From Nitrospirota bacterium (GTDB lineage: Bacteria > Nitrospirota > UBA9217), in assembly GCA_963751455.1 (NCBI GenBank), contig CAVVUN010000012.1, forward strand, positions 256,001 to 320,000: a stretch of 64,000 bases of DNA, given 5' to 3'. The notes beneath the pieces were generated by a model that was not told the DNA's origin, searched no databases, and saw only the letters and a list, made by a program, of their open reading frames with translations. Made by a program: the position numbers and the translations under genes. Shown here piece after piece: positions 15,704 to 61,594 of the stretch (positions are counted from its first letter, which is position 1; every line of letters begins with the position of its first letter).

Positions 15704-16399
15704 TTAAAGGGACTTGACGATTTCGTCAAGTGCGCGATTGAATGCGTCTCGCCATTCTCCGATCGTTTCCTCATTCACTGCTTTCACACCGGCGAGACCC
15801 AGCGTTTTATTACCGACCATGTCAACCCGTTTTGTGTTCACCTTGTTTCCGCTGCTGTCCCATACCGTCAAGATGTTCTTGGTAAGCGCCTTGGTCGTAG
15901 GAACAAAGCCGCCGGTTTTTGCGGTCCATTCGGAGAAAATCAGTACCACGGCATCGACCTTCAATGCGGCACAGAGCTCCTTGGCTTTTTCCGCTTCAAT
16001 TATTCCGCCCTTAATTTCCTTGCTCACCTGAGTAAATACCGGCATTTCTTTTCCATTCAGGTTCGGCACGTATACGGTCAATGTTTTTTCCACGCCGGGT
16101 TTTCGGTAGCCGGGGCTATCAATAAAGCTGGATACTTTTTCCATGGTCCACTTGCTTCCCAGTTTTTTCTCGGCATCATCGAGCATGTTGTTAACCGCGC
16201 CAGTGATCAGTTTCGAGACCGGAGTGCTGCCGACACTGCCGGAGTTTACAGAGCCGCCCACGTCACTCACGGTGAGAGAGACGATGGCAACTTTATTAAA
16301 CTTCGGGCTCTCTTTAGCAAGAACGGTTGAGCTTAAAACAAAACAGGACAGGGTTAGCAGTGAACACAGCATTGCCGGTTTCCAAATACATTTTATCAT
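15704..16399 (-). CDS. secreted hypothetical protein
   Basis: AAGGAGGAG RBS, signal peptide, alpha/beta pattern (KELCAALKVDAVVL). Confidence 0.7.
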   Translation of the reverse strand: MIKCIWKPAMLCSLLTLSCFVLSSTVLAKESPKFNKVAIVSLTVSDVGGSVNSGSVGSTPVSKLITGAVNNMLDDAEKKLGSKWTMEKVSSFIDSPGYRKPGVEKTLTVYVPNLNGKEMPVFTQVSKEIKGGIIEAEKAKELCAALKVDAVVLIFSEWTAKTGGFVPTTKALTKNILTVWDSSGNKVNTKRVDMVGNKTLGLAGVKAVNEETIGEWRDAFNRALDEIVKSL

Positions 16400-16626
16400 G
16401 ATTTCTCCTCCTTGTTTTAAATATCATGAATTGTGCTCATGGATGGGTAGCTTGATTATACTTATATGCAATTTGTTGTCAAGAACTCAATGTTGAATGG
16501 TTTAGTGGTTGAGAGGTTGAGTGGGCGGTGAGGCGCAGAGCGCATAGAGCATGGTGAAATGGACGGTGCATCTGAATGTAGAATTGGTACCACCAACTAA
16601 ATATGCCTATTGTTCTTCATTGCTGT

Positions 16627-33200: not shown

Positions 33201-34117
33201 GCGTCGTGTAAAGCCTGGGAATAGCCGCCTCCGCCCCATGAGTTGTTGGTAATTTTGACTCCCATTAATGCGGCGTACCCTATGGCATCGATAGCATCGT
33301 CGGTATAACCATATCCTCCCGGACCCAAAAATTGCAGGGCCATTATTTTTACCCTGGGCGCGACTCCCGCGACGCCGATGCCGTTGTTCGCAATACCGGC
33401 GATCGTGCCCGCAACGTGCGTGGCGTGGAAGTGGTCGCCGGCTTCAAATACGCTGGCGTGGTTGCTAAAAAAATCCCAGCCGTGAACATCGTCTATAAAA
33501 CCGTTGCCGTCATTATCGATGCCGTCACCCGCGATTTCTCCGGGATTGGTCCAGATGTTGTCCACAAGATCGGGATGGCTGATGTCCAATCCCGTGTCGA
33601 TGATACCCACAACAACCTCCGGCGACCCCAGTTCATTATCCCATGCCTCCGGACCATCGATGTCGACATCCGCGACTCCCTCGACTCCGTTTATAGCCTG
33701 GCCGGTGTTATGGATGCCCCATAACTCGCCGAATCTTGGATCGTCAACTGCGATCTGGGCTCGTACAATATAGTTCGGCTCGGCATAAATGACCTTTGGA
33801 TTTTTTTTCAGCTTTATGATGACATCTTCGACTTTGTTCTTGTCCTTATTTTTAATCTTTACCAATTCACTTCCGGTCAGGGCATGCTTTTTTACGGTGA
33901 ACACGCCCTCCTTGTCCTTTAATGCTTGCTTTTCAGCCTCATCCATATCCGGTCTGAACTTGACGATGACCTCATCCGGTGCATATTCGATTTGGCCTTC
34001 AGGCAATTTCTTATCATCCTTATCCTTCATCACTGCAAGACCGGGTGAAACACCAATCATGATGAGAGCGGCAAACAGAATGCTTAACGTAATCAAACCA
34101 GTCCAGTTTTTTCTCAT
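27293..34117 (-). CDS. secreted S8 subtilisin-like serine protease with 17 bacterial Ig-like (Big_5-type) repeats
   Basis: GGAGG RBS before ATG 34117; signal and propeptide; triad GIIDTG, HATHVAG, GTSMATPH; repeated P.NGA..V..TITVT.SE..IDP...L...YTVTIP..F.F.T domains. Confidence 0.92.
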   Translation of the reverse strand: MRKNWTGLITLSILFAALIMIGVSPGLAVMKDKDDKKLPEGQIEYAPDEVIVKFRPDMDEAEKQALKDKEGVFTVKKHALTGSELVKIKNKDKNKVEDVIIKLKKNPKVIYAEPNYIVRAQIAVDDPRFGELWGIHNTGQAINGVEGVADVDIDGPEAWDNELGSPEVVVGIIDTGLDISHPDLVDNIWTNPGEIAGDGIDNDGNGFIDDVHGWDFFSNHASVFEAGDHFHATHVAGTIAGIANNGIGVAGVAPRVKIMALQFLGPGGYGYTDDAIDAIGYAALMGVKITNNSWGGGGYSQALHDAIATWGGVFVAAAGNSSQNADISPMYPAAYDCSNIISVAAINNQGELAYFSNYGATTVDVGAPGLDVLSSMPGNAYGYLSGTSMATPHVAGIVALILSRAPASTPEVVRDLLMESAAPLASLQGITVSGGMAKAGSALMKLDVRFTDPANGAIEVPVDKTITVTYNMEVQAGTEFGAVSLKTGETTVAIVSHISGSVLTIDPVADLELNKAYTVTIPAGAVQKIDGTPLASYTFSFKTPDTIFPVITGTDPADGSTTVLAMQTVTITISEKVIKGSNFSQIALKSGTSVVQSAINITGNVLSIDPVLNLGNNTTYTVTIPDNAITDPSGNSLAAYTFGFSTLPDALPPTVSGSDPVNNATKVPVDKTITVTFSESIQEATNFSLITLKSGSTTVQATVSIGGNIVSIDPASNLSSETDYTVTIPAESVKDTPQGNMLQSGYTFNFKTADIIPPAVSSTNPSNGAIDVPLSTTITVNLTEETTKGTSFTGIFLKDESGNIVSAGIDYLRYQDEWEDWYYDTRVIVINPIADLQLGKMYIVTIPANAVKDLGGLGNEAYLFSFRTPFSVTSTDPANNATMVPVGKTITVTFSENGVQGPAFSNITLKAGATTIQSAISINANVLTIDPAANLSNDTTYTVTIPADSIRDAASVPVNACSFSFRTLDIVPPAVSGSTPANNATNVAVGTTITVNLTEETSQGANFGGIVLKDAAGNIVNAAIDYYRSFDDEEWEWYVNTALIVIDPVANLEMGKTYVVTVPADAVRDKDGNPNSQYNFSFKTPFIVTATSPANNATRVPVDQTITVTLSDNGVQGPAFNSITLKAGATTVQSAISINANVLTIDPAANLTNDTTYTVNIPADAIRNAGGVSTNAYSFSFRTLDIVAPAITGSTPANGATSVAVGTTVTVNLTEETSTGPNFGAIILKDATANPVNAAIDYYRYWEEVGEEEWEERVNTRIIVIDPVANLEMGKTYNVTVPADAVRDKDGNPNSQYSFSFSTPFIVTATSPANNATMVPVGQTITVTLSGDGVQCPAFSNITLKAGATTIESAISLNANVLTIDPAANLSNDTTYTVNIPADAIRNAGGVPVNAYSFSFRTLDIVAPAITGSTPANGATSVAVGTTVTVNLTEETSTGPNFGAITLKDATANPVNAAIDYYRYWEEVGEEEWEERVNTRIIVIDPVANLEMGKTYNVTVPADAVRDKDGNPNSQYSFSFSTPFIVTATSPANNATMVPVGQTITVTLSGDGVQCPAFSNITLKAGATTIESAISLNANVLTIDPAANLSNDTTYTVNIPADAIRNAGGVPVNAYSFSFRTVDISSPAVSSTEPANGATSVAVGTTVTVNLTEETSTGPNFGAITLKDAAANPVNAAIDYYRYWEEVGEEEWEERVNTRIIVIDPAANLEMGKTYNVTVPADAVRDKDGNPNSQYSFSFSTSFLVTATSPANNATMVPVDQTITVTLSDAGVQCPAFNSITLKAGATTIEAGVSLSGNVLTIDPVANLINDTVYTVTIPADAIRNAAGVAVNAFSFNFRTLDVLAPAVSSTSPADGTTSIAVGTTINVNLSEDTATGPNWSGITLKDSAGNTVATAIDYNRYWDDWEWAEIVDTRIIVIDPGANLEMGKIYTVTVPADAVRDKDGNPNSQYSFSFSTPFMVMSTNPANGATGVPVDQAITVTLAHNGVQGPNFNGIMVKKGSMPVQSAVSINGNVLTILPASYLDNDVTYTVTIPHDAIRDEQGHPNGQYNFGFTTRSRVTITNPAHNVIRFPTDQTITVNLSENGVQGPAFGSITLKAGATTIESTISLNANVLTIDPVANLANDTVYTVTIPADSIRNAEGVALDAYSFNFRTLDIIAPAITGSTPANNAVNVAVGTTINVNLTEETSAGANFGGIVLKDEAGNIVNASIDYDRYWDDWEWAEIVNTALIVIDPVANLEMGKTYSVTVPAGAVMDKDANPNVQYSFSFSTPL
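28700..30660 (-). repeat. tandem near-identical 657-bp intragenic repeats (about three copies, two Ig domains each)
   Basis: Matching antisense ORFs start at 29085, 29742 and 30399 (657-bp period); boundaries approximate. Confidence 0.85.
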
Positions 34118-34587
34118 ACATCGCCTCCGTTTGAGTATTTTTTTAAAATAAATATTTTCAATTAATGCTGCGACAAGACTCAGAAGGATCGAAAGATTTA
34201 AACGATAATGCGAGCTGTTCAAAAGAAATGTAGTACAGACCGGCTAGCCGGTGCGAACCAAACAGATAGAGTGAGGAGCAGGAATAAAATTATTCAGGAA
34301 GTAATATATAATTGCTACAAAGTTGCATTCAGCAGGCTAAAACTTTTGACTACACTAATAAAGTATCTCTTTTTTTTGAAATGTCAAGCGTTGGTATGAC
34401 TAAAAGATAGCACTCTGCAATAATTTGAAACTCAAAGCATTAAAAAGATAAATAATGACGATGAAAACTGATAAAGAAAGGTTATAAGGACAAATTGGCA
34501 ATGAAAGGAGCGGGAGTGCAGAGCGTGGCGAGGCCTCACAAAAGATCACGAAAATTATACGCGGTCAACTGGAACACAAAAAAATTT

Positions 34588-47303: not shown

Positions 47304-48405
47304 TTATGATTTGCTCATTTTACCGCCGAATATCTCCACAATTTTATTTACCAAAGCCGGCAGCGAGGGGTCGCGCGCGCCCATGATAAGAATACAGTCT
47401 TCAGGTTTTGCATCGAGTTTTAATCTGGTCAATAAGTCATCGCGGCTGGTGAGCGCTTGTGCATTGAATGCCGCGGGACCAAGGCCGTTTATGATATCTT
47501 CCGAGGAAATATTTTTTTGCGCCGTGCCTCCCGCATAATCCTAAAAACGGCATTTGAACACGGATGAACACGGTAACAGCGGATCAAAACAATGTGATAG
47601 AGCAAAAAGCCATCTCGCCTTTTGGGTGAATCCATTACTGTTCGTAACTTCCTATAAATCCGTGTTGATCAGATTTTATCCGTGTCCAACTGCTTTTTTC
47701 AGGATAATAGATCGGGAGGAGATAGAGTGAATCATTTGGCCGGAACGCGGTTCGAAAAGTTTCGATGTATTCGTCTTTCAAAAACCGTGTAGGGCCGAAG
47801 CCATGCGGCTGATATACGGCCAGGATGCGTCCGGAAAGGCCTCGGGCTGCCCGAACAACAGCCGCTATTTTTGCCGGATTATGGGCAAAGTCATCAACCA
47901 CATGCACGTTCGCTTTTGTTGCGGTGACGGAAAATCGCCGGGCCACACCCTCATAATTTTTTACCGCATGCGCAAGGGCAGACGGCTCACAAGCGAAATA
48001 CTCGCATACGCAGAGCGCAGCGCACAGGTTTTCAAGATTGTGCTCTCCGGGAAGCGGCAGATGATACTCAGTGCCGCTCCTGAATAATTTGACCAAAGTC
48101 GGGAGGAGTTGCTCCCGGTCCGGCCGCCACGAACCCGAACCGTTTCGGCCGAAGCGCACGGTTGCAGGAAGCGAAGCAAGGACCGGATCGTCGGCGTTGG
48201 AGGCCGTCCAGGAAGATTGCGAAGCCAGCGTTTTGAAGAGTTTCGCGATGTCCTCAATGCTTTTGTGGTCCTTGGAAACATTCAGGATGACGGCCGCTTG
48301 CGGACGATATTTGACCACGGTTCCATCGCTTTCGTCCGCCTCCACCACCAGGAGGTCGGACCCGCCGCTATAAGCGTTTCCGATAAGGCCCTCTTTTTCG
48401 AGCCG
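47304..48405 (-). pseudogene. murC: MurC-like (UDP-MurNAc-Ala ligase family) gene, 5'-truncated and MITE-interrupted
   Basis: GLIGNA..LVVEADESDG, DH, VARRF, DDFAHNP, YQPHG, LPIY|YAGGT..MGARDP; N-terminal half absent; frame is restored when 47540-47708 is removed. Confidence 0.85.
47540..47703. mobile_element. 164-bp MITE inside murC
   Basis: 26-bp imperfect TIRs (21/26); 5-bp TSD ATAAT at 47535-47539 and 47704-47708. Confidence 0.88.
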
Positions 48406-48428: not shown

Positions 48429-50564
48429 TCAACCGATTCCTGGAATCCGCAAGGCTCGGTAAACCCAGAGCGCTTCATGAACGAGTACGGCGCTTAACGT
48501 ATGTGAATCAGGTTTCACATCCTTTGGAACGGTGAAAGAGTACTCCATCAATTGATCCTTGCACGGACCGATTTGTTTAAAAACAATGCGATGACTTACT
48601 TTTTCAGTTAGGCGAATCGCAACAACCGGTGAGCTTTTTGTGGACCAGACAGTATCGTTACAATCATTCACTCGCAGACAAACAACTACTTTTGCCCCTG
48701 CTCGGAGTTCGGATGGCCCCTCAAGCGATAGACGATACGCATTTTCAACCCAAAATTCGATCGGTCCGCAGACCTCGCACTCTCGCTGGATAAGGAGATT
48801 GCCGAGAGACAAGAGATGAGTAGCGGTTTCCCTAACAGTATGACCTGGCAAACATTGTGCCTCTGCCAGACAGGAATGTGAATGTAAGCCGGCATCAGCG
48901 ATAGATCGCCATAAAGCACCCCGACCTTCCCCAATAAACAGCATTTCGCAAAACAGAGTAGCCGCCAGTTCGTCCCACTGCCGAAATCCGAACTGAAGCG
49001 GATTGAGAAGTCGGCCGAGCTCGGGGTGCCACAAAAGCGAACGTTGGCAGCTTCGCACTAAATTCAGTCCTGCTTGCGCTGTTTCACTTATTTCACGGCT
49101 GATCTCTGCCATTCCGGCAAGTAACTCCTGACCGCTATTCGAGCCACTCAATTCCTTAGCGTAATGACGACGAACTGCTCGCTCCACTATGTTTGCATAT
49201 CCCGTTCGATCCAAATAGTGTAGCAACATGCTTGCTAATTTCTCCAACTCGTGACCACAGTTTCTTAGTTTAATTTCTCCGGGCTCGGCACTCTCCGTTA
49301 TAATAACGGCGCCGGTCGAGCCTCCTTGAATTACCGTTTGATCTTTAAGGCCTATTGTAGCAGCTAGGGGAGTTCCGGCTAGTTCAGATGGAAGAGCGAA
49401 TAGCTTAACCTTGGTCGATTGTGAATGCCACTTAGCTTCTTTATTGCCTAAGAGTTGTATTGATGGAGCAGGTCCGCAAGCATCGCCGAAAAGGACGTAT
49501 GGTCTTCTGCCTGTTGCACTCTCCTGAAAATCGTTCAGAAGGCATGCTATCTGTCCAAGTCCGACATTGTCCATTGAAAGAGAGTGACCAAGGGTAAGAT
49601 AATATTCGCTCAGTTCTGAGTTGCACCTGGTGGCAAGAAACGCTGCGGGAAAACCTTCGGCTATTGCAATTACGCTGTTTAGATCCGATGGGTAGAGTTC
49701 TCCGCCGAGCGCAAATCCACCGCATGAATGCAGCAGCAGGTTTCGGGCACTTAAATCCCCGAAGCCAATCGAAGTACGCGTACCAGCCGGTGCGCGCTTG
49801 CATTTACGAGTACCCAAGCCACTACAACCGTTAATAGGCCGATTATCAAGTAATCTTTCCGAGCTTATGCCGGCCCCGCAGAGGACAAGATTGCCTAGCT
49901 TAGCATGCCCGAATGTGCCGTGCGCGAAGACACTTAAGACATTCCAACTAGATTCCCGAATCCAGCGTCGAGCCTCATCCTCCATCCAGAGTATTTCATT
50001 GCAGCCGCTGGAAGTCCATCGTGACATTTTTTCTCGATCGAAATCTATCTCAGCTGAGTCAGGCCAATGAGCGTATTTAGCCAAATAGATCTTGGCCAAT
50101 GAAAAACTTAGACCCTCACTGTCAATTGCAGTAATTATACTCCAGGGACGCCGAAAGTGGACTGCCAATTGTTCAACTTGTGCAAAAGGGAAGTCATCGC
50201 GTAAACCTACGAGAACTGCTGAATCCCACACCGCAGCTTCAACTGAAAGCCAATTTTGTACTTTGGCAACGGGACGCTCCAACAACTGGGCATAGAACCT
50301 GACGATGCCGCTTAGTGCATCGTTTATGAAAAAAATCGGATTTCTATCATTTGTTCTCTTTCTTGGAGCGTCTATTTCACCCTTTTCCACCTGTTCTGAA
50401 GCAATATACCATTTTAAAATAGACTCCCAACGTGCAGATCGACCATCTTTCGGTCGCAGCACCATGGGTCCTCTCGCCGTGCCCTTCTTGAGCTGCTCTT
50501 CGAACGCAGTATGTCTTTCAGTCCAAGTAACCTTGTTGCTCATAACTTTGTCTTTAGTCATCAC
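48429..50564 (-). CDS. putative clan CD (caspase/gingipain C25-like) cysteine peptidase-domain protein
   Basis: VLSVFAHG (His), LLLHSC (Cys), YVLFGD resembling gingipain Y.LLGDP; C-terminal CEVC. Confidence 0.6.
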   Translation of the reverse strand: MMTKDKVMSNKVTWTERHTAFEEQLKKGTARGPMVLRPKDGRSARWESILKWYIASEQVEKGEIDAPRKRTNDRNPIFFINDALSGIVRFYAQLLERPVAKVQNWLSVEAAVWDSAVLVGLRDDFPFAQVEQLAVHFRRPWSIITAIDSEGLSFSLAKIYLAKYAHWPDSAEIDFDREKMSRWTSSGCNEILWMEDEARRWIRESSWNVLSVFAHGTFGHAKLGNLVLCGAGISSERLLDNRPINGCSGLGTRKCKRAPAGTRTSIGFGDLSARNLLLHSCGGFALGGELYPSDLNSVIAIAEGFPAAFLATRCNSELSEYYLTLGHSLSMDNVGLGQIACLLNDFQESATGRRPYVLFGDACGPAPSIQLLGNKEAKWHSQSTKVKLFALPSELAGTPLAATIGLKDQTVIQGGSTGAVIITESAEPGEIKLRNCGHELEKLASMLLHYLDRTGYANIVERAVRRHYAKELSGSNSGQELLAGMAEISREISETAQAGLNLVRSCQRSLLWHPELGRLLNPLQFGFRQWDELAATLFCEMLFIGEGRGALWRSIADAGLHSHSCLAEAQCLPGHTVRETATHLLSLGNLLIQRECEVCGPIEFWVENAYRLSLEGPSELRAGAKVVVCLRVNDCNDTVWSTKSSPVVAIRLTEKVSHRIVFKQIGPCKDQLMEYSFTVPKDVKPDSHTLSAVLVHEALWVYRALRIPGIG

Positions 50565-51492
50565 CCATCTCTCTATTTTTTACCAGATCGTTCCTTAACT
50601 CCAAAAGGTTTTCAACTTGCTTTTGGTCTTCGCGAGATAAGATAGGGATACGGGTCAGTTTCTCCAACTCTTCCTCTCGATCAAGCAGCCCGAAGCGTAT
50701 CCGCTCGGCTATGTAATCGATCAATATCCGGGGGGCGTGACCGCCGTTCCGCAGCAAAATGTTATAGATACCATAACTGGCCATCAAACAATCAGAATCA
50801 TAGGGTCCGACACCAGGGTCCTCCCAGGGCAGTTCAGCGATTGCACGCTCTATATCCCTCTTTGTAAGAGAATATGCCGCGACTACTCGAATGAAAGTCG
50901 GATCTTTCTGATCTATACAACTCCAGTTCTTGGGAGTATCACCTCCCGTAAAGATGGCTTTGGCGCCATAGCGTTGAGCAACAGTTCTGAAAACTGGAAG
51001 CTTCCACGCAGTCTTGCACGTTTGGCCACAGACTGAACTGCCTTGAATAATCATCTCCCGGAAGGCCTTGTAGGGATAGGAATGGATAAGCAGCCAATCA
51101 ACTTTTAGAAAATCGATAATAGAATTAATATTGGCTCTTGTCTTCACGTTTTTCATGCCTTGGTCCACGGTGAACGCCAGAACTTTGAGCCCTCTCTCAA
51201 CAAGCAGCTTCAGCGCTACCGCACTATCCTTACCGCCTGAAAACGCCAAAATAGCATCGTACTCCGCAGTCTTTGCCTCTTTTAGTGCCTCCTCGAATTC
51301 GCTCATGAGCACTTGAGGATCGATAGGCCTCTCGACGAGAGCAGCACACTGCAAACAGAGAAAGCGTCCCTTCGTTTCAACGAACTTTAATTTATTGTCC
51401 ATTCCCTCCCGGTAGATACAGATTTCACACATTCGACCGCCAGGCAGTGTTGCAGAAATAGTTCCGTTCAGCATTTTTGATTTAGACTCCAT
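50554..51492 (-). CDS. PP-loop N-type ATP pyrophosphatase (N-acetyl sugar amidotransferase/QueC-like)
   Basis: AILAFSGGKDS; N-terminal CEIC/CLQC; CGQTCK; RIRFGLLDREE. Confidence 0.8.
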   Translation of the reverse strand: MESKSKMLNGTISATLPGGRMCEICIYREGMDNKLKFVETKGRFLCLQCAALVERPIDPQVLMSEFEEALKEAKTAEYDAILAFSGGKDSAVALKLLVERGLKVLAFTVDQGMKNVKTRANINSIIDFLKVDWLLIHSYPYKAFREMIIQGSSVCGQTCKTAWKLPVFRTVAQRYGAKAIFTGGDTPKNWSCIDQKDPTFIRVVAAYSLTKRDIERAIAELPWEDPGVGPYDSDCLMASYGIYNILLRNGGHAPRILIDYIAERIRFGLLDREEELEKLTRIPILSREDQKQVENLLELRNDLVKNREMGDD

Positions 51493-51520: not shown

Positions 51521-53032
51521 TTAAATGCAGTAGGTTCTTAGTTCATCGAGAGCACGACGAGCTTCAATCCGATCATCGAAAGCGAAACGCCGGCCGCTCA
51601 CGAGCTGATAAGTTTCATGTCCCTTGCCGGCAATTAAAACCACCCCTTTTGATCCGGCCCGCATGATTCCCATCCGAATAGCAGCAGCGCGGTCAGTCTC
51701 AACTTCATACTTAAGATTGAGTTGAGACGTTGCTGATAGGTTTGCTTCACTCACTCCGGATAAAATTTCCTCTATTATTGCCCGGGGATCCTCGCACCTT
51801 GGATTATCAGATGTAATAATTACGTGATCGCTAAGATTACATGCGATTGCACCCATCAACGGTCGCTTACTGCGATCGCAGTCGCCTCCGCACCCAAAGA
51901 CGGTCACTAGTTTGCTATTTCCGGATAATGCCCGCAAGGAACCGCATACGTTTTCAAGTGCATCAGGCGTATGGGCATAATCAATAAAAACTCGCGGACC
52001 ATTGACTCCCTGCACCAGTACTCGTTCGAGCCTGCCTGGCACACCATGAAAAGTCGCTATGGCCTCCGCGGACGAATTTAGATCAACACCGAGAGCAAGT
52101 GTTGCGCTGACAGCTGCCATAATATTGTAAACGTTGTAAATGCCGGTCATAGGCGAGACGATGTGAACACTATTAAACCCTTCCGCATCAAGCTGGAACT
52201 TCAACTGCTCTAACGTCATCCCAAGTTTTGACGCCCTTATTGTGGCCCGCCTCTCAATTCCGTACGTCATGAAACGCGAGCTGACCCGCTCAACTAAATG
52301 CCGGCCCCAGAGATCATCTATGTTAATCACCGCCAAAGCTTTAGTCGGAAGCATTTGGAACAACCGTGCCTTTGCCTCGAAATAGGCATCCATGGTGCCG
52401 TGATAATTCAAGTGATCTCGAGTTAAATTTGTAAAAATACCGATTCCGAAGTGAAGGCCATCCACACGATGCTGGCAAAGTGAGTGGGAGGATACTTCAA
52501 TTGCCGCCGTGTTTTGTCCCGTAACACGCATAGCCTCCAGGCATGCATGAATCTCTATGGCTTCGGGAGTAGTGATGCCGCCGTAGAAGGTTTGATTTCC
52601 GACAACCCAATCAACGCTGCCGATCATGCCGCAGCCACGATTGACATGGTTGAGAATATGCCGAATAAGATAACCCGTTGTAGTTTTGCCATTAGTTCCG
52701 GTAATGCCGACAATATCCATCATTAAACTGGGATGGTTATAATAGGCTGAACAGAGGTGTCCAAGTGCTTGACGTGGATTGTTAGCGATAATATGGGGGA
52801 GTTTTGGAGAAAATCGTTTTTTCGCTAAAATTGCGACAGCTCCGTTCCTCACCGCTTGGGATATGGCTGCTAAATAATTTTTATTGTTTTCGTCAGTCGC
52901 AGTGAAAATGAAACCCGGTTCCACGCTACGGGAGTCCAGAGCTATACCGAGAATATCAACATTTGCCGAATTAGTGATGGTAATGTCTGGATAGGACGCG
53001 CTTAGGCGATTAATGAGCGTGTTGAAATTCAT
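51521..53032 (-). CDS. murE: MurE-family amino acid ligase (cluster-borne paralog)
   Basis: GITGTNGKTT, TTPE, EVSSH, FTNLTRDHL, DYAHTPD, GCGGD, SDNPR, IAGKGHE. Confidence 0.88.
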   Translation of the reverse strand: MNFNTLINRLSASYPDITITNSANVDILGIALDSRSVEPGFIFTATDENNKNYLAAISQAVRNGAVAILAKKRFSPKLPHIIANNPRQALGHLCSAYYNHPSLMMDIVGITGTNGKTTTGYLIRHILNHVNRGCGMIGSVDWVVGNQTFYGGITTPEAIEIHACLEAMRVTGQNTAAIEVSSHSLCQHRVDGLHFGIGIFTNLTRDHLNYHGTMDAYFEAKARLFQMLPTKALAVINIDDLWGRHLVERVSSRFMTYGIERRATIRASKLGMTLEQLKFQLDAEGFNSVHIVSPMTGIYNVYNIMAAVSATLALGVDLNSSAEAIATFHGVPGRLERVLVQGVNGPRVFIDYAHTPDALENVCGSLRALSGNSKLVTVFGCGGDCDRSKRPLMGAIACNLSDHVIITSDNPRCEDPRAIIEEILSGVSEANLSATSQLNLKYEVETDRAAAIRMGIMRAGSKGVVLIAGKGHETYQLVSGRRFAFDDRIEARRALDELRTYCI

Positions 53033-53292: not shown

Positions 53293-53505
53293 CTACCAGT
53301 TCATGATACCGCCACCCCGCACGAAACCTGCACGAGCCAAATCAGCACGAATATTCGCCAGTTTGGCTTTTGCTTCTTGAACTTTCGCCTTAGCTTCATG
53401 GAACTGAGCCAAGGCCTGAAAGTCCTTGGAAACTAAATTTTTGTGCTCCGTTCGGAGGCGGAGCTCCACAATACCACTGGTACTCACTTTCTTCTTTTCT
53501 GCCAT
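53293..53505 (-). CDS. putative RiPP precursor/scaffold peptide 2 (70 aa, ends GIMNW)
   Basis: AAGGAGG RBS; paralog of 53607-53810. Confidence 0.75.
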   Translation of the reverse strand: MAEKKKVSTSGIVELRLRTEHKNLVSKDFQALAQFHEAKAKVQEAKAKLANIRADLARAGFVRGGGIMNW

Positions 53506-53606
53506 CTTCCTGTCCTCCTTTTTTAATTAAGATTCTCCAATAGACACTTCGCACCGTTTGCTGTCCAAATGTTCATTAAGCCATTAATGGCACTGGGCTT
53601 GGTGAT

Positions 53607-53810
53607 TTACCAGTTATCCGATACGTCGCCAAGCACTAAACCCGCACGAGCCAAGTCAGCACGAATATGCGCCAATTTGGCTTTTGCTTCTTGAACTTTC
53701 ACTTTAGCTTCATGGAACTGAGCCAAAGCCTGAAAGTCCTTGGAAACTAATTTTCTGTGCTCCGTACGAAGCTCCTCGATACCGCGAATACCTAATTTCT
53801 TTTCAGCCAT
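53607..53810 (-). CDS. putative RiPP precursor/scaffold peptide 1 (67 aa, ends VSDNW)
   Basis: AAGGAGG RBS; shares RTEH..LVSKDFQALAQFHEAK.KVQEAKAKLA.IRADLARAG with its paralog. Confidence 0.75.
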   Translation of the reverse strand: MAEKKLGIRGIEELRTEHRKLVSKDFQALAQFHEAKVKVQEAKAKLAHIRADLARAGLVLGDVSDNW

Positions 53811-53869
53811 TTTTTTCTCCTCCTTTCTTGAATTAAATTAAACACAAGAGATTTTGATCTCAGCAATCC

Positions 53870-55390
53870 CTATATATGATTACTAAATCGATTTGAATCG
53901 TTCAAAACAAAGTTCTTATGACCAACAGCCGCAGCTGAGGCGCCTGCCATCCTCCCAAAAAAAGCGCCAGATAACAGACCAGTTCCGGCTAAATAGTTAT
54001 GATTGAAAAGGCCTCCCACCATTTCTCCGCAAGCGAAAAGGCCGGAGATAGGTTTCTGATTTGAATCAAGCACCTGAGCCATCTCATTTATTTTTACACC
54101 TCCATAAGTAAAAGTGATACCACCAGTAACGGGATATGCAAAAAAAGGCGGATCCTCAAGCCGGCGCGCCCAATTAGATTTAGGTGGTTGAATACCCGCA
54201 GCCGTCAAACCATCCAATTGGGTCGGGTCGAACTCACCTTGGCGCTGAGCCCCGTTATATTGCTTAAGCACTTCACATGCCCTAGCTTGATTTATTGGCA
54301 ACATCTTAACGAGGGATCCCAAGGAATCAGCGAGGATTGGTTTCCCGGTCTTATAGCGTTTCTCCAGCAGCGGCACGGCATTCGCGTCAAATATCTGGTA
54401 GGCTATGCCATTGGGCTGGCTTAGGATGATTCGACCCATCTTTGCATACGTGAAAAACTGAAAGTCTTCTCCTTCGTCACAAAAGCGCTGGCCGAGGCGA
54501 TTCAGCATCACTCCAAAAGGATAGGAAAGCCGGTTGGACTTATCAGTCAATGAACGGGAGCCGAAAAATGAAGTGCCCGCGTCAATGGGTGTAGAATGAC
54601 AGTGCGTGAAATTACCGTATCGAAGCGCGTTTAAGTCAAAAGCCATGCGCAAACCATCTCCGGTATTATAGGCAGTGCCTCGAACTCTCGCTTGAGCCCA
54701 TTGCCTACCCAAATAGTGCGCACGCCAAGCAGCATTAGACTCAAACCCCCCACAGGCCAGTATAATAGCTTTAGCGGTTAATTGAGAATATCCTTTCGGG
54801 CTCCGGGCAAGAACACCCGTAACCCTCGACCGATTATCCCGGGTTAGCGATACTGCAGCTGTTTGATATAGCACCTCTATTCCTCGTTCAGCAGCAATGT
54901 TGAACCACATTCGTGATAGTCCTACGCCTCCATCGCGTACCTGAACCAAAGCTCCAGGCGACCATCCCACCTTATTTTTGTGGCAAATAGCGCTCAAGGA
55001 TACGGCCAATTCCATAGCTATGCCTTGGTTTACCAACCAGCGGACTGTGTCATAAGAGTGATTGACCAACAGCATGCTCAAATGTAAATCGATTTGACGA
55101 TGAGTAAGGCGCTGTAGATCCTCCCAAAATTGTTGAGCTGTATAAGATGTTATCTCCTCGAAAAAGCCAGGAACTTGACGTTCGGCATCAGGTAACAGTG
55201 GCCGTAGATCGTTTCTCGAATCGAAGGCGAAACGCAATAGCCCTCCGCTGAAGTAAGTATTTCCACCACGAAAATGTTCAGGTGCTTTCTCGAGAACAAT
55301 AACTCGCTTCGCGCCATTTTCGTGGGCGGATACGGCGGCAGCCATAGCGGCGTTCCCAGCGCCAACGATTATTACGTCAAAATCAGACAT
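53870..55390 (-). CDS. FAD-dependent oxidoreductase, TcuA/CobZ-like
   Basis: VGAGNAA, EKAP..RGGN, ACGGFE, NTGDG, GITFTYGGV, CGEMVGG. Confidence 0.85.
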   Translation of the reverse strand: MSDFDVIIVGAGNAAMAAAVSAHENGAKRVIVLEKAPEHFRGGNTYFSGGLLRFAFDSRNDLRPLLPDAERQVPGFFEEITSYTAQQFWEDLQRLTHRQIDLHLSMLLVNHSYDTVRWLVNQGIAMELAVSLSAICHKNKVGWSPGALVQVRDGGVGLSRMWFNIAAERGIEVLYQTAAVSLTRDNRSRVTGVLARSPKGYSQLTAKAIILACGGFESNAAWRAHYLGRQWAQARVRGTAYNTGDGLRMAFDLNALRYGNFTHCHSTPIDAGTSFFGSRSLTDKSNRLSYPFGVMLNRLGQRFCDEGEDFQFFTYAKMGRIILSQPNGIAYQIFDANAVPLLEKRYKTGKPILADSLGSLVKMLPINQARACEVLKQYNGAQRQGEFDPTQLDGLTAAGIQPPKSNWARRLEDPPFFAYPVTGGITFTYGGVKINEMAQVLDSNQKPISGLFACGEMVGGLFNHNYLAGTGLLSGAFFGRMAGASAAAVGHKNFVLNDSNRFSNHI

Positions 55391-55469: not shown

Positions 55470-57164
55470 TTAGTCCCGCATCTTTCTAGGTTGAACGGTT
55501 GTATGGCCAGAAAATAACCATATTTCGCGTTCACGGGGCAGATTGTTGACATCAACATTAGCAGGAGTGTCTATAAATTTTTTTACATTTTCCCCTAAAT
55601 GCAAGGCGATCAATGAAGCCATATCCTCTTTCGACGGAACTGGTATCAGGATTTGTGCACCGAGAAGCTTCATCATGTCCATCGTTTTCGCATTGTTAAA
55701 GGCACAGGTATGTGCATCGTCATAGAGGCAGAGTAATACATCTACCGGCATAAGTGCAGAAATCTCATCGTGAGATAATGAACGTGTCAATCCGCCAATA
55801 TAACAAAACCGGAAGCCATCGAACTCGATGACTGCTATCGGAGATTGATAGACTCCTCCCGAAATCAAACTCTCGTCCCGGTTAATTAGCTGTATTGAGC
55901 AAAAGTCATAATTTATGATGTCGACGGCTCTCTTCCTGTTTACGTTAGAAGCGCCCAAGGGTGTTTGTAACTGATGTTTTTTCGACCAAATACCATCTCT
56001 GTCAAGCACTACCACATCTTCTTGCTGTTCAATTAGTCGAGAGCTTTTTCTGCGGGGGTCCAGAATGACCAGGCCTGGCTTCGATGCCGATTGAAGTTCA
56101 ATAAACCCATCACGACATCTAATACTGTACTTGCCGGCTGATCCTGAAACATAAGGCTTACGCGCCGATGAAACTGATAGCGGGCAGTACAAATCCGCCT
56201 CATCAGATCGTAGCCCCCAACCGACTGCACATGCTCTACAGCCTCCGAGACAATTAGAAAGGTGACCGCAGCTAGAGCAGGTATCAGGCACATTGAGAGT
56301 ACGCAATGCATTCATCCGCGCGCCATAAAACACTTCAGTAAGTCGATGAGTGACGAGATTGCCTAATGGCAATTTAATATAACCGCAAGGGACAAGGTTC
56401 CCCAGGGCATCAACGTGCAAATGCTTACTGAAGCAGCCTGGCTGAGTCGAAGGTGTCGTCCCCTGCAAAAACTCAAAACAGGATGAGCCAAAAGTGATCT
56501 GTCTGTATTTTGACATCGCAATGGCGCTCTTCACGACCTCGGCAACCTGCTCCGCCGAGGGACAAAGCTCATGACTTGCACGGCCCGACGGCACTACGGG
56601 GCGGATTTTAAATATCGCAGCGCCTGCATTGTGGGCGGAATCAGCGACCTGCTTCATTTCTGCGATATTGACTCGTGTAAGCGTCATGCGTACGAGGACC
56701 TGGAATCCCATACTTGAAGCCGTCTCAATATTGGCCAGCGTACGTGCAAATGCTCCCGGTGTGTTCCGATGCCAATCATGAGTAGGTCCAAATCCGTCTA
56801 GGCTCACGTGCATCGTAAAAATGCCTGCATCGAGCATACGGTCCAATTCTTCAGAATTCAAATTATAGGCGTTCGTGAAAAGTATTGATGCGATGCCGGC
56901 GTCAATCAGATGCCTTCCAATAGCGCATACAAGATTTAATTCTAAGGTAGGTTCTCCGCCGGTGATGGCCACTTCTTTCGTATCGAGCTGATGAAGATCC
57001 TCAATAAGCTTTGACCTAAAGCGGGAGAAGTTAAAAACAGCACCTTTTTTCGGCGCCGGGCGCGCACAATGCCGGCATTTCATGTTGCACTGGTCGTTTA
57101 TGCGAATGCGGAGACTCTGGAGTCGCGCATATGGAACGGTCGGAAGCATGTTAGGTTTCAACAC
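55470..57164 (-). CDS. radical SAM/SPASM enzyme fused to a degenerate MBL-fold C-terminal domain
   Basis: CNMKCRHC, TGGEP, SLDG; SPASM CSSC..C.GGCRA..C; C-terminal IEFDGFRFCYIGGL..VDVLL..ILIP. Confidence 0.85.
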   Translation of the reverse strand: MLKPNMLPTVPYARLQSLRIRINDQCNMKCRHCARPAPKKGAVFNFSRFRSKLIEDLHQLDTKEVAITGGEPTLELNLVCAIGRHLIDAGIASILFTNAYNLNSEELDRMLDAGIFTMHVSLDGFGPTHDWHRNTPGAFARTLANIETASSMGFQVLVRMTLTRVNIAEMKQVADSAHNAGAAIFKIRPVVPSGRASHELCPSAEQVAEVVKSAIAMSKYRQITFGSSCFEFLQGTTPSTQPGCFSKHLHVDALGNLVPCGYIKLPLGNLVTHRLTEVFYGARMNALRTLNVPDTCSSCGHLSNCLGGCRACAVGWGLRSDEADLYCPLSVSSARKPYVSGSAGKYSIRCRDGFIELQSASKPGLVILDPRRKSSRLIEQQEDVVVLDRDGIWSKKHQLQTPLGASNVNRKRAVDIINYDFCSIQLINRDESLISGGVYQSPIAVIEFDGFRFCYIGGLTRSLSHDEISALMPVDVLLCLYDDAHTCAFNNAKTMDMMKLLGAQILIPVPSKEDMASLIALHLGENVKKFIDTPANVDVNNLPREREIWLFSGHTTVQPRKMRD

Positions 57165-57292: not shown

Positions 57293-58318
57293 TCAAAATT
57301 CCAGAGAGTTTGGCTTAATATTCTGACAAGATGGTACGCTTACCGTGAGGTCATTGAAAAAATTGAAACCCAGCGCCCTGCATGCCGAACAAAAATATTG
57401 ATCGTCACAATTTCCACATTTTCCTTGATATTTTCCAGGCGTTTGTTTTCGTAGAAGTGCCAAAAGTTCAGATGACCAAATTTTTTTCAAATCGTCATTA
57501 ACAAGATTTCCCAAGGCGGATGCCAAAACAGGTTTAAAATGCTCGCAAGGTCGAACTGTGCCATCAGGGGATATTGATAATTTGAACCTACCCGCAGAAC
57601 AAAGCTTCAGATGATCATTTTCCGGACTGCGACTGCAACTGCTGTATCGTAATGGTAACTTGCTAACTGTTGTCTTCGCGCGTTGCCACAAAGCGAATGC
57701 CGCCGACTCATCTTGTGCAAATATATGCTGTCCAAATTTAAACGGTACATAATATTGCATGATAACTCCGCGCAGTCGGTCTGGCAAAGCAGATATAAAC
57801 TCGGCTGGTTCAGGGCATCCTGCTAAAAGTGACCAGACAACCATCACATTAAGACCAGCATCCATTGCATGTATCATAGCCGAGCAAGTCTCATCGAAGC
57901 TGCCTGCCCGCGTTTGCTTGTCGTGGTAAACGCGGTTGCCAAATAATTCAAATATAATATTTCCAACGCCGGTTTTTCCCAATTTAAACCAAAAATCCGC
58001 TTCAGGCATTGGGCCACCTGTAATAAGGTCGCAATCGAGGTCATCTTTAGTTGACTCCTCCAGTATCTCTGGGAGCCACGGGAAAGCATTACAGCCCGGT
58101 GCGATAAATAACACATGCCGAATATTGTGCTCCGACAGAACCAGTAAAACCTTTCGTATGATTCTTTGCTGTTCTTTTGGCTCATAACCTTGGAAAAAGT
58201 AGGGGCAATGTTTGCATTCAAACGCACATTTCCAAGCGAGCTGGATATGGGCCTCAATTGCAACGCTCGGTAGTATGGATAAAAAATCTTTAATCCTCTG
58301 ATCGACTTGTTGATTCAT
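57293..58318 (-). CDS. radical SAM/SPASM protein (divergent)
   Basis: CAFECKHC; CSAG..PDG.V.PC; CGNC..CSACRA; ATGA overlap with the upstream gene. Confidence 0.85.
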   Translation of the reverse strand: MNQQVDQRIKDFLSILPSVAIEAHIQLAWKCAFECKHCPYFFQGYEPKEQQRIIRKVLLVLSEHNIRHVLFIAPGCNAFPWLPEILEESTKDDLDCDLITGGPMPEADFWFKLGKTGVGNIIFELFGNRVYHDKQTRAGSFDETCSAMIHAMDAGLNVMVVWSLLAGCPEPAEFISALPDRLRGVIMQYYVPFKFGQHIFAQDESAAFALWQRAKTTVSKLPLRYSSCSRSPENDHLKLCSAGRFKLSISPDGTVRPCEHFKPVLASALGNLVNDDLKKIWSSELLALLRKQTPGKYQGKCGNCDDQYFCSACRALGFNFFNDLTVSVPSCQNIKPNSLEF

Positions 58319-59304
58319 TTTATCAACCAGCAATAAGGGTCGGGCGCGTATAAATCTCCTGAACTAATGTAAGCCATGGCACGACATCCGCCACCGCATT
58401 GCATAAAGCTGCTGCAATTGCAGCAACGTGGATCGATTCCATCTCTAGCCCTCAGAGCATCCATAACTGGATGCCGCGACAAGATATCATCTATATGGTT
58501 AGATGCCAGTGTACCCAGCGTCAAGGGGAAAACCGGGCATGGATAAGCATGTCCTTGAGCTGTATAATGCAACATATAACCTGCTCCGCACTGAGCTCGT
58601 TCGTCGATGGATCTTTCTGCGAAAAGAGCTGCACAGTGTGGCAGCTCCAAGTGAATACCTATATGAAAAGTAGAAATCTTTTTGATATCTAAAATAAAAC
58701 GCTTTAATGATTCTCCGGACAAAATAGGACCAGACAGGCCGGCTTGTCTGCCCAGAGGCATAAGTGGGAATAGGATTAAGGTGTTGACACCCAGTTCATC
58801 TAGCATGTGAATCATTTGCTGGATATCACTTTGATTATGGCGAGAAACGGCTGTTTGAACAGCCACTCTGACGCCTTTTCTAACAAGGCGCTCGATCGCA
58901 GACCAGGCTTTAATGAACGTGCCCGGGCCTCTCACAGCCTCATGAGCCTTGGATAGCCCGTCCAACGAGACCTTAATACCATAAATATTCATAGAAATGA
59001 GTTGCTCGATTCGTTCATCTGAAAGGAGAATTCCATTGGTTGTTAAACCCCAGAACATTTGCTTACGAGTTGCATAAGTGCCGAACGACTTGACTATATT
59101 CCACTCAAGTAGCGGCTCTCCACCGGTCAAGTCGAGAATAGGTGTGCGTTCACCCATCTGGTTAAAAAGTTCTGCTACCATCAATTCTGACCAAGAGGAA
59201 GTCGAACTCGCAGAGCTGTCGACGGCGCAATGGGTACACGAAAGATTGCATCGTGCAGTTATTTGAACGCTAATGGAAGTAAGGGGCGCTGATTCGAATG
59301 CCAT
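58315..59304 (-). CDS. radical SAM/SPASM enzyme
   Basis: AGGAG RBS before MAFESA; CNLSCTHC, TGGEP, TTNG, SLDG; CGAG..PC; CCNC..CGGGCRA..DPYC. Confidence 0.9.
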   Translation of the reverse strand: MAFESAPLTSISVQITARCNLSCTHCAVDSSASSTSSWSELMVAELFNQMGERTPILDLTGGEPLLEWNIVKSFGTYATRKQMFWGLTTNGILLSDERIEQLISMNIYGIKVSLDGLSKAHEAVRGPGTFIKAWSAIERLVRKGVRVAVQTAVSRHNQSDIQQMIHMLDELGVNTLILFPLMPLGRQAGLSGPILSGESLKRFILDIKKISTFHIGIHLELPHCAALFAERSIDERAQCGAGYMLHYTAQGHAYPCPVFPLTLGTLASNHIDDILSRHPVMDALRARDGIDPRCCNCSSFMQCGGGCRAMAYISSGDLYAPDPYCWLIK

Positions 59305-59389
59305 TGTCGGAGAACTCCTGTAATGCTGCGATGAATTTGGGGGATAACCAACTATTGGGTATCCCCCATGTGGTAATGCAGCTAGCGTT

Positions 59390-59464
59390 TTAGAGACAAT
59401 GGGCAATGTTGACCATACAACCCGCAAATCGAACTTTTTTCAACTTAAGCTTAAATTTGCGCAT
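59390..59464 (-). CDS. putative 24-aa RiPP precursor MRKFKLKLKKVRFAGCMVNIAHCL (not in ORF track)
   Basis: AAAGGAGG RBS just upstream of ATG 59464; TAA at 59390-59392; followed by hairpin 59339-59367; flanked by rSAM genes. Confidence 0.7.
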   Translation of the reverse strand: MRKFKLKLKKVRFAGCMVNIAHCL

Positions 59465-59494: not shown

Positions 59495-60319
59495 CTAAAG
59501 AGGCCCTGGGCATAATTTATCCCTGCCTGTGCGTCTTCTGCGGGCTCGGCATCCCCCGCCACAATCCTTAATAGCACACTTTAAACATTCATCGGGAACC
59601 CGAGACCAGGTGAGAAGCCTCTCATCATTCCAAATTTCGCTCAAGCTTTTGTTGTCTAAGGAGCCCAGGCAAAGGCGTGAGCGTCGACATGGACGAACTT
59701 CAGCCTGCTCCGAAACAAACAGGGCAAATCGACCAGCTGGGCATTTACTTCCGACATTTACAAAATCAGGGAAAAAACGCTGCATTAATACCAGATCTGA
59801 TATGACAGGTATCGAGCAATTGTCGGAAAATTCAGATACTGCATAAAGAAATTGTCGGTAAGTATCAACCGAAGCGTGTGGAAGCTCCTCGATGTTCACG
59901 GCTGCCACAGATCTTGCTGACAGCCATTCGATCCAAACCTCTTGATTCGCCTTAGGAGGCAAGTAACCAACAATGACAATACTAAAGCCAAAATCCAGGA
60001 GCATGGCGATTTTTTCCTTGAGACTTTTATCGGGCGAAAGACTTGTATCAACGCTGACTCGCAATGTACATGGAGCAAGCCGGCGCCAGGATGGACGAGG
60101 TTGCAAATCCTCGTATGCGAGGGTCAACACAAGTTCATAACCATGTATTACACTTAAATCCAAAGCCGTTTCAATTGGACCCTTGCATACCATGTTAATA
60201 ATGGAAATTCCTCCAGCAAGTATCATTGACAAGCGTTCGGTCCACAGCGTGTGGTCGGGCTGCAAAGGCAAATCTACCTCGGCAATCATAGGCGCTATCA
60301 GGCGTTCGCTTTCGGACAT
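59495..60319 (-). CDS. SPASM-domain protein lacking the radical SAM CxxxCxxC motif
   Basis: CPAG..VRPC..LGS..SLSEIW..CLKC..CGGGCRA..C present; no N-terminal Cys triad. Confidence 0.78.
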   Translation of the reverse strand: MSESERLIAPMIAEVDLPLQPDHTLWTERLSMILAGGISIINMVCKGPIETALDLSVIHGYELVLTLAYEDLQPRPSWRRLAPCTLRVSVDTSLSPDKSLKEKIAMLLDFGFSIVIVGYLPPKANQEVWIEWLSARSVAAVNIEELPHASVDTYRQFLYAVSEFSDNCSIPVISDLVLMQRFFPDFVNVGSKCPAGRFALFVSEQAEVRPCRRSRLCLGSLDNKSLSEIWNDERLLTWSRVPDECLKCAIKDCGGGCRARRRRTGRDKLCPGPL

Positions 60320-61269
60320 AAAGGATCGTTACCCCAAATTTCCTTTGTGGCGCTGTAGGCTGCTGCTCGGCAACCTCTGCATATCGTGCAAAAATCGCAA
60401 GTATAGCACTTGGCTTCAGATGGAACGGTGCGCAGCGATGCCATTAATTCAGAAGTTTGCCATGCGGCGGTAAATCCTACATCGAAAACATTACGATCAG
60501 AAATACGCAGTTTCGCACAGGGTAGCATAGAGCCATCACTGGAGATTACAACCGCCCATCTGCCGGCGGAACAGCCACTCCAGATATCGTTGGGAATATC
60601 TTTGATATATTTTTTTGGAGTTAATAAATTAAGCAAAGGTTCTTCACAAGATAAATTCTCATGCGATTGCATCCATCCCGAGATCGTCTTCAAGACATGA
60701 TCATACTCGACTACTCCGAGAGAAAAATCATAATCAAGCTTGCCGGGTAAGGCGCAAATTCTCTGGAAACCTGCAGGAACTCCAAGACGAACGAACAGAT
60801 TTAAGAATTTGTCTATTTTAGCGATATTTCGCGACGAAAGTGTCACGAGAAAAGTAATTGGAAGGCCTGCATCTCGCAAGCGCAAGACTTGTTCACACAC
60901 TGCTTGCGCCCTTTCATCCTCTGTTGGAAGAGCATGAAGACTGAGTTGAATAAAAGAAATTTTGTTGTGAAGACGGCTAAAGAAATTTTCAGGAATTCGG
61001 AGTCCATTTGTCAAAAGACCTGGTCGCCAGCCAAACTGATTAGCTTTCCCGACCAGTTCCTCAATATGCGGATATTGCAAACACTCGCCCCCTGTAAAAA
61101 CGATTCGCTCTACTCCCGCCTTTTTAGCCTCAGCCAGAAGTTGAGTGCCTTCAAACAGCGGCATATCTGTAATATGGCGTTCAGAGCCTAAATAACAAAA
61201 GGGGCAATCCAAGTCACATCGTGTAGTTACCTCCAGCTCGAGTAAACTTGGCGCTTGCAAATTCAGCAT
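60298..61269 (-). CDS. radical SAM/SPASM enzyme (PqqE/MftC-like architecture)
   Basis: CDLDCPFC, FTGGE, LTNG; CSAG..PC; CYTC..C..CRGCRA..DPLC. Confidence 0.9.
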   Translation of the reverse strand: MLNLQAPSLLELEVTTRCDLDCPFCYLGSERHITDMPLFEGTQLLAEAKKAGVERIVFTGGECLQYPHIEELVGKANQFGWRPGLLTNGLRIPENFFSRLHNKISFIQLSLHALPTEDERAQAVCEQVLRLRDAGLPITFLVTLSSRNIAKIDKFLNLFVRLGVPAGFQRICALPGKLDYDFSLGVVEYDHVLKTISGWMQSHENLSCEEPLLNLLTPKKYIKDIPNDIWSGCSAGRWAVVISSDGSMLPCAKLRISDRNVFDVGFTAAWQTSELMASLRTVPSEAKCYTCDFCTICRGCRAAAYSATKEIWGNDPLCPKANA

Positions 61270-61270
61270 T

Positions 61271-61594
61271 TTACAATCCCTTTTCGATCCGGATTAGTTT
61301 GTTATCATTCATTTCCTGGAGAAAACCAGATAACTCTTCTATTAACTCCTTTCTTTCTGGAATTTCAACGTTACCGATTTTTTCTAAATTATAAGTAATA
61401 TCGTCGCAAATTTTGCCGAACGTTGTCGGTTTATCCAATAGACGCCATACCATTGCTTCGAACTCGCCAAATTCGTAGAAGCCGTGAAAATCCGGTCGTT
61501 CTCCTTTGTATCTTGGGAAAACCAGTATCCTCCCATCCTCAGTATCTCGCCACTGATGGCTCTCTAGTCTATACACTAACGTTGAGTCATCCAT
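61271..61594 (-). CDS. PqqD-like RiPP recognition element (RRE)
   Basis: 107 aa; beta strands then helices (AMVWRLLD..TFGKIC..FLQEM...LI); AGGAGG RBS; coupled to the rSAM gene. Confidence 0.78.
   Translation of the reverse strand: MDDSTLVYRLESHQWRDTEDGRILVFPRYKGERPDFHGFYEFGEFEAMVWRLLDKPTTFGKICDDITYNLEKIGNVEIPERKELIEELSGFLQEMNDNKLIRIEKGL

Follow-up and report, generated by a model that had tools for sequence, protein, structure and literature searches.

Paired peptide genes ending in tryptophan beside a distant BlsK relative of predicted gingipain fold: an apparently undescribed family of RiPP-type precursors in a Nitrospirota bacterium

The window analysed here, a stretch of 64,000 nucleotides of a Nitrospirota genome (G000:C12:256001-320000), carries a 16.5-kb island in which two tandem peptide genes, pepA and pepB, are found (Table 1). 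All genes of the island lie on one strand, and its GC content is 45.7%, against 51.4% for the genome. The five radical-SAM/SPASM proteins, four with the CxxxCxxC motif and one with the SPASM part only, belong to the same operon as pepA and pepB, and their scores for named maturase families all stay below the cut-offs. The host genome has its own murE and valS elsewhere. The host valS is read in three frames in the assembly, and it and another class I synthetase gene (G000:C3:167566-170067; C2:141180-143579) are probably multi-frame through assembly errors; if the broken host valS is real, the island ValRS would be the sole intact copy. No transporter is annotated among the 13 island proteins. 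No Rfam family was found in the window or in locus L001, and no tRNA in L001. A promoter and terminator scan was not informative (found versus expected, 32 versus 22 and 7 versus 16), and none of 25 candidate viral contigs was confirmed.

The other copy of the 701-bp repeat that bounds the island lies beyond the window, at 65183-65883. More widely, the island is flanked by two copies of the 3' part, about 930 bp, of a YkuD-like/MurC-like fusion gene (window 47304-48404; G000:C12:320952-321883). The downstream copy is interrupted by an element of about 170 bp (window 47536-47709), MITE- or REP-like, of which dozens of 98-100% identical copies occur on most contigs. Away from the island, the minus strand at window 27293-34222 holds an ORF of 2309 aa whose composition is strongly skewed and which looks like a repetitive surface protein.

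Table 1. Features of the island and its boundary; positions are those of the window.
Feature	Position	Strand	Remarks
Direct repeat, 701 bp, downstream copy	47704..48404	.	97.7% identical; 3' part of MurC-like gene; bounds the island
U711, 711-aa orphan	48429..50564	-	predicted gingipain/clan CD fold; distant BlsK relative; proposed Trp-recognising transpeptidase
PP-loop ATPase (SGGKDS)	50554..51492	-	WbuX/QueC-like, below curated cut-offs
MurE-family ligase, second copy	51521..53032	-	39% to host MurE; DNPR motif present
pepA	53293..53505	-	70-aa precursor peptide: helical leader, core FVRGGGIM, Asn-Trp
RBS AGGAGG of pepA	53514..53519	-	
pepB	53607..53810	-	67-aa precursor peptide: helical leader (8-55), core LVLGDVSD, Asn-Trp
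RBS AGGAGG of pepB	53819..53824	-	
TcuA-like FAD dehydrogenase	53870..55390	-	NF006130 516 bits, cut-off 369
Radical SAM/SPASM protein with C-terminal metallo-beta-lactamase-like domain	55470..57164	-	
Divergent radical SAM/SPASM protein	57293..58333	-	CxxxCxxC present
Radical SAM/SPASM protein	58315..59427	-	
SPASM protein without CxxxCxxC motif	59495..60319	-	
Radical SAM/SPASM protein	60298..61269	-	
PqqD-like RiPP recognition element	61271..61594	-	weak: PF05402 E 0.003, NF033536 E 0.002, below cut-offs
Alternative-type ValRS, second copy, 881 aa	61672..64000	-	start beyond the window (64317)

An earlier note on this DNA had described tandem paralogs with a conserved helical leader, variable tails, a common Asn-Trp end and strong ribosome-binding sites. 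Both ORFs are indeed present with the C-termini FVRGGGIMNW (pepA) and LVLGDVSDNW (pepB), and AGGAGG stands 8 nt 5' of each ATG. In the leader (TEH...RAG), 38 of 42 residues are identical. The codon changes there, five synonymous and four non-synonymous, amount to an excess of synonymous change (pS 0.18, pN 0.04, Fisher p 0.025), and the leader is under purifying selection. Only 11 of 24 nucleotides match in the eight core codons and 8 of 30 in the stretch 3' of the stop, and between these two stretches the codons for Asn-Trp and the first two bases of the stop codon are the same in both genes. An AlphaFold2 model from the two-sequence alignment gave a single helix for residues 8-55 of pepB and a flexible tail of low confidence. 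The note had called the conserved part of about 45 aa a core; the conservation holds and the term does not, since this part is the leader and the variable part is the core. A search for homologs recovered only the two copies themselves and nothing in 60 related genomes.

Short ORFs with ribosome-binding sites, a conserved leader and a variable core are the marks of RiPP precursors, and this reading, already given in the note, agrees with the RRE-like and radical-SAM/SPASM neighbors. Several known classes were tried and rejected. A lasso peptide would need partners that Pfam and NCBIfam did not find among the 13 island proteins, namely an asparagine-synthetase-like cyclase or a transglutaminase-like B peptidase. 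For a microcin C-like peptide, ThiF/MccB is absent from the island, and Asn is neither terminal nor conserved. For darobactin/dynobactin, the best DynA score was 71 of 450 bits, and for GeoRSP the radical SAM and SPASM scores were 101 of 400 and 24 of 300 bits.

The 711-aa orphan U711 matches no Pfam family at E 0.01, and PF01364 is absent at E 0.1 in 16 of its homologs. A word-indexed search missed its family, which a full HMMER scan recovered with 237 representatives at E up to 0.001. In 100 aligned homologs, H214, H219, C228, C246 and C254 (P0003 numbering) are invariant and C280 nearly so; His219, Cys228, Cys246 and Cys254 are candidates for a metal site. PDB sequence searches gave nothing useful. 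The AlphaFold2 model (pLDDT 89.9) matched best the gingipains RgpB (Z 17.8) and Kgp (Z 17.4), with an rmsd of 3.4 over 251 residues, and separase and CHAT proteases were lower matches; Foldseek placed a gingipain only at rank 15, among Ig-like matches. The Atlas put U711 among large unnamed clusters, one of them auto-named as a C25 cysteine peptidase, and the nearest named clusters are C25 peptidases. Judging from the model, U711 is predicted to have a caspase-like clan CD fold with a conserved H214/C280 pair.

In the family tree, whose deeper nodes are weakly supported, U711 groups with P0004/5/7 (support 0.999) inside the radiation associated with Trp-ended peptides, apart from the BlsK-like branch. 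Several distant homologs lack the catalytic His and keep the Cys, and distant homologs often adjoin tRNA synthetases or NRPS parts. Homologs without the catalytic His occur, for example, at L041:9257-16302 and L042, where an A-T didomain and a synthetase gene of class I (IleRS-like) are their neighbors. At L036:5303-10945 a homolog lies between two class II synthetase-like genes and an S66 peptidase gene, presumably MccF-like, a setting that suggests a product of aminoacyl-nucleotide type. At L019:2007-3684 the homolog is followed by an M29 aminopeptidase gene and a ThiF-family gene.

One branch of the family leads to an enzyme of assigned activity. A homolog in a Streptomyces plasmid blsD/E/F cluster (L047) aligned with the U711 profile at an hhalign probability of 98.7 (E 3e-16). 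It sits between ATP-grasp/transporter genes and methyltransferase genes, which we take to be the position of blsK. Annotations at L047:8554-22724 include blsE, blsF, cytosylglucuronate synthase, DegT aminotransferase, MFS, ATP-grasp and methyltransferases, as in a blasticidin/arginomycin-type cluster, and L037 and L038 (Streptoalloteichus) look similar. This cluster came from a plasmid match; a search for the blsE family in 201 actinomycete genomes had given none. A protein of S. griseochromogenes matched the U711 profile at E 3e-37, and its Cys 236/253/259/282 align with C228/C246/C254/C280. From the organism, the synteny of relatives and the cysteine numbers, we assume that this protein is BlsK and that Cys 236/253/259 are its Fe-S ligands. 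The likeness to BlsK consists of homology together with the aligned His, Cys and Cys triad, and the match is one-directional. A profile of the BlsK clade, used in the reverse search, did not bring up U711, so the relation is a distant one. No bls-type gene was found in the island, which is thus not a blasticidin/arginomycin cluster. The available text on BlsK describes a tRNA-dependent aminoacyltransferase with a [3Fe-4S] cluster that forms an amide from Leu-tRNA (PMC12710036).

Close relatives of U711 are spread across many phyla, and peptides ending in Trp are found beside them. Of 21 loci retrieved with a sub-alignment of 16 homologs, 13 have a hand-picked intergenic short ORF with a ribosome-binding site that ends in Trp; among the other eight, seven are contigs of at most 4 kb and the eighth ends inside its cluster. 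For S. gallinarum, whose U711-homolog contig had no such peptide, it was predicted beforehand that one would exist, and a Trp-ended peptide with AGGAGG was found on a second contig. In Staphylococcus gallinarum DSM 20610 (L059, L010), nikkomycin-like nucleoside genes, the peptide and the U711 homolog lie on two small contigs. No Trp-ended peptide was found on the two small contigs of Sulfobacillus. Whole-genome searches added 16 loci, four at 200 bits or more and 12 distant. In the former group, L031 and L033 have Trp-ended peptides, L030 has a peptide with the end Trp-Glu directly upstream of the enzyme, and L044, a close homolog, has none over about 46 kb; the 12 distant loci gave no convincing case. 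The L044 locus (11079-16573) combines the homolog with a DegT aminotransferase, a radical SAM protein, a carrier-protein-like ORF and a class II synthetase-like fragment. Five of seven plasmid matches were fetched. In all five A-T NRPS plasmid loci the Trp-ended peptide is missing, and the homolog is paired with a stand-alone adenylation-carrier didomain.

The enrichment was counted in a small-ORF scan of the loci other than L048 and plasmid hits H4, H5, H8, H9, H11, H15 and H16. Among RBS-bearing, intergenic small ORFs of protein-like composition, the share ending in Trp is 14 of 44 for 25 close-homolog loci and 5 of 355 for 87 windows of the own genome (p 4e-11), where the composition filter and the separation of A-T loci were chosen post hoc. 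The same filter, which misses the peptide of L014, gave 0 of 27 for the 19 loci of A-T or distant type. Unfiltered, the contrast is weaker: 33 of 570 small ORFs end in Trp in 30 higher-scoring loci, and 35 of 1900 do so in the own genome. The L014 peptide (12878-13117) contains three CGPDNC repeats and has a radical SAM enzyme and a 2OG oxygenase as neighbors.

The note had proposed a role for the terminal Trp or Asn. The importance of Trp reaches well beyond the two copies, since unrelated peptides beside U711 relatives also end in it; Asn is local to pepA and pepB. In 18 hand-picked peptides, the residue before Trp is Ser in 8, Ala in 6, Asn in 2, Glu in 1 and Pro in 1, and the Asn-Trp end is confined to pepA and pepB. 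The precursors span 23-79 aa, their leaders are mostly unrelated, and the peptides are unrelated to one another and to pepA and pepB except for L009/L013/L031 and two weak pairs. Homologs from mainly non-biosynthetic settings, against which the note had warned, were not seen: no true peptide homolog was found outside the own contig, and the analogous Trp-ended peptides sit in biosynthetic clusters. Every Trp-peptide cluster examined has a U711 homolog, and no other component occurs in all of them; because of this, the homolog very probably reads the terminal Trp. As most leaders are unrelated and the cluster types differ, it is the shared partner. pepA and pepB are likely RiPP precursors whose terminal Trp would tag them for U711.

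Many of the related clusters point to nucleosides. Many contain an enolpyruvyl transferase (NikO, E 3e-98 for L008), and many contain radical SAM, tyrosine phosphatase, aminotransferase, 2OG oxygenase, kinase and HAD genes, sometimes with TruD. This gene set is that of the polyoxin/nikkomycin nucleoside builders, for which the available parts of one source give the roles of PolA, PolH and PolJ; its supplement makes no mention of a precursor peptide (PMC5365060). L005 and L008, which look complete, have nucleoside genes and no ATP-grasp or other ligase among the scanned ORFs, and in L009 an ATP-grasp domain is fused to one of two U711 homologs. Other Trp-peptide loci have different partners (peptidase-ABC transporter, radical SAM, HisG), and Trp-peptide loci mostly have no synthetase among the scanned ORFs. 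On the Streptomyces plasmids L025, L026 and L029, a U711 homolog accompanies 7-deazapurine genes (queD/queE/folE/queC) and a stand-alone A-T didomain, with no condensation domain.

What U711 does with the Trp can be proposed only tentatively. With a probability just short of even, Trp would be both recognition tag and leaving group, and U711 would cut the Xaa-Trp bond and move the peptide to an amine. Following RiPP logic, the PqqD-like protein would bind the helical leader, and the radical-SAM/SPASM enzymes and the FAD dehydrogenase would modify the eight-residue core. Cys280 of U711 may then attack the Xaa-Trp carbonyl so that Trp leaves, and the acyl-enzyme would be resolved by an amine and not by water, the old peptide bond paying for the new amide without ATP. 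A free terminal carboxylate is not an acyl donor without activation. Since an activator is missing among the scanned ORFs of some clusters, the simplest chemistry is one in which the Xaa-Trp bond itself is attacked. In nikkomycin-type clusters, the acceptor could be the 5'-amino group of an aminohexuronic-acid nucleoside, giving Ser- or Ala-linked peptidyl nucleosides. In the own island, the MurE paralog could install a diamino acid, which is the candidate acceptor, and the ValRS may serve self-protection or side supply. No second cluster of the island's type was found, and 0 of 300 other genomes of the phylum have a U711 homolog; because of this, the argument from nucleoside clusters is carried over by homology at about 25-34% identity.

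Clostripain-like enzymes presumably belong to clan CD as well, and one of them offers a precedent for the tag-and-leaving-group model. GelP is described, in the available text, as a clostripain-like RiPP transpeptidase that releases a terminal Gly (PMC13178200). Against the model, the selectivity of clan CD enzymes usually concerns the residue that precedes the cut (P1), a habit that would place the invariant Trp at P1; the model leaves a variable S, A, N, E or P there. Other observations also stand against it: MurE and the PP-loop ATPase could extend Trp, the ValRS fits a BlsK-style use of tRNA, the A-T NRPS loci and L044 lack a Trp-ended peptide, L030 ends in Trp-Glu, and L009 has the ATP-grasp fusion. 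Over the wider family, three acyl donors may be interchangeable, namely aminoacyl-tRNA (BlsK), the aminoacyl-carrier thioester (A-T NRPS loci) and the Trp-ended ribosomal peptide. A little more tentatively again, the family may define a widespread pathway class in which an enzyme of BlsK/gingipain fold uses the Xaa-Trp bond of a peptide as an ATP-free acyl donor for peptide-nucleoside and other hybrids. The indole would take the place of the terminal adenosine of aminoacyl-tRNA, and the own island would be a radical-SAM-rich RiPP branch of the class.

The note had regarded the terminal Trp as the site of modification or extension, and a place for this exists as second choice. Trp might be the loading point of a reusable scaffold, whose carboxylate is activated by MurE or the PP-loop ATPase to append cargo for the radical-SAM enzymes, and U711 would cut after Trp to release or transfer the product. 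This is rather unlikely, although it would satisfy the P1 selectivity of clan CD, give work to the two ATP-dependent carboxylate-activating enzymes of the island and explain the Trp-Glu end of L030 as an encoded extension. C-terminal chemistry on short precursors is also documented in the available texts on FzmZ (PMC13622209) and PesA (PMC13060819). However, L005 and L008 keep a Trp-ended peptide with no carboxylate-activating ligase among their scanned ORFs, and the variable cores before Trp argue that the core, and not cargo only, becomes the product.

Somewhat less probable is that U711 acts as BlsK does and transfers Val from Val-tRNA, supplied by the island ValRS, to an amine of the modified peptide or product for tailoring or self-protection, with Trp serving only for docking. 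The BlsK homology with its aligned Cys triad and the presence of ValRS fit this idea, as do the synthetase genes beside distant homologs in L036, L039, L041, L045 and L046. The scarcity of synthetases in the Trp-peptide loci does not, nor does the position of the BlsK clade as a separate branch whose profile did not report U711. A tRNA donor would also leave the need of the nucleoside clusters for a peptide unexplained.

It is improbable that U711 is a plain maturation peptidase, which would release a modified Trp, or else the trimmed core, by hydrolysing Xaa-Trp. Such a role would suit the gingipain-like fold with its His-Cys pair and the C25 peptidases as nearest named Atlas clusters, and no peptidase besides U711 is annotated in the island. 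Against it, the one characterised relative, BlsK, is a transferase, the nucleoside clusters have no evident spare Trp-modifying enzymes and some have no ligase, and the stand-alone A-T didomains that partner homologs without a condensation domain fit acyl transfer. Finally, it is very hard to credit that a small coiled-coil gene of structural or regulatory function was recently duplicated and that the two copies share Asn-Trp by chance. No homologs of the peptides were found outside their contig, and Trp-ended small ORFs do occur by chance in 5 of 87 control windows; against this reading stand the purifying selection on the leader, the diverged sequence that flanks the Asn-Trp codons on either side and the family-wide enrichment of Trp.

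pepA and pepB are likely RiPP-type precursors of an apparently undescribed family, set by the terminal Trp and by a partner of BlsK/gingipain fold. No paper that links Trp-ended precursors to a gingipain- or BlsK-like enzyme came up in the literature search, in which subscription journals are thinly covered. The words gingipain, caspase, C25 and clostripain never occur in a review of RiPP proteases (PMC10885120). The enzyme, for which Pfam and NCBIfam have no model, and the one-residue signature would together define a class of clusters that annotation misses. The comparison also suggests that BlsK, whose chemistry has so far been ascribed to an unexplained Fe-S cluster, likely has a clan CD fold and works through a Cys acyl-enzyme. 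RiPP-nucleoside hybrids are predicted as products of the nikkomycin-like clusters of Pseudoalteromonas sp. S16_S37 and Staphylococcus gallinarum DSM 20610, and because these strains are cultured, the idea is directly testable. A peptide ligase that needs a one-residue tag and no ATP would serve protein engineering.

The system resembles several known ones in part. Loci related to U711 share with nikkomycin/polyoxin clusters the NikO-like, radical SAM, tyrosine-phosphatase, aminotransferase and 2OG-oxygenase genes, which are absent from the own island; they differ in that the ATP-grasp ligase, which we take to be NikS/PolG, is often replaced by a U711 homolog and a peptide. Pearlins (TglA/PEARL) are likewise short peptides with C-terminal chemistry, and tgl clusters hold an aminoacyl-tRNA synthetase as the pepA/pepB island does. 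In pepA and pepB, however, Trp is gene-encoded, and there is no PEARL in the island (a LanB-like peptide aminoacyl-tRNA ligase in 0 of 13 proteins), so that a pearlin assignment was rejected. In fosfazinomycin biosynthesis, according to the available text, a small overlooked ribosomal peptide (FzmZ) also lends its C-terminal residue to a non-peptide antibiotic, whereas FzmA activates the terminal Arg by ATP-dependent, asparagine-synthetase-like chemistry and Arg is kept (PMC13622209); the pepA/pepB system has a terminal Trp and a predicted protease fold that would work without ATP. GelP of gelatinamin, a class V lasso peptide, compared here by its description in the available text, is also a His-Cys enzyme that acts on a RiPP C-terminus by transpeptidation with loss of the terminal residue, but it is C11-like, membrane-anchored and of about 48 kDa, and it cyclises a lasso peptide with release of Gly (PMC13178200). 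U711, in contrast, has 711 aa, a gingipain-like predicted fold and putative metal-site inserts, and the island has no lasso cyclase. With the gingipains (peptidase C25, clan CD), U711 shares the predicted fold of residues ~67-365 and the His-Cys arrangement; it differs in its identity of 8-12%, the lack of a PF01364 match, an extra helical bundle and cysteine-rich domains, and its biosynthetic context. With BlsK of blasticidin S, about 485 columns align, including the His, the Cys at the catalytic position and the Cys triad; BlsK forms an amide in a secondary-metabolite cluster, and the island of U711 also has a synthetase gene nearby. Identity is only about 15% and the clades are separate, and that of U711, unlike BlsK, has the extra invariant His219 and is paired with Trp-ended peptides.
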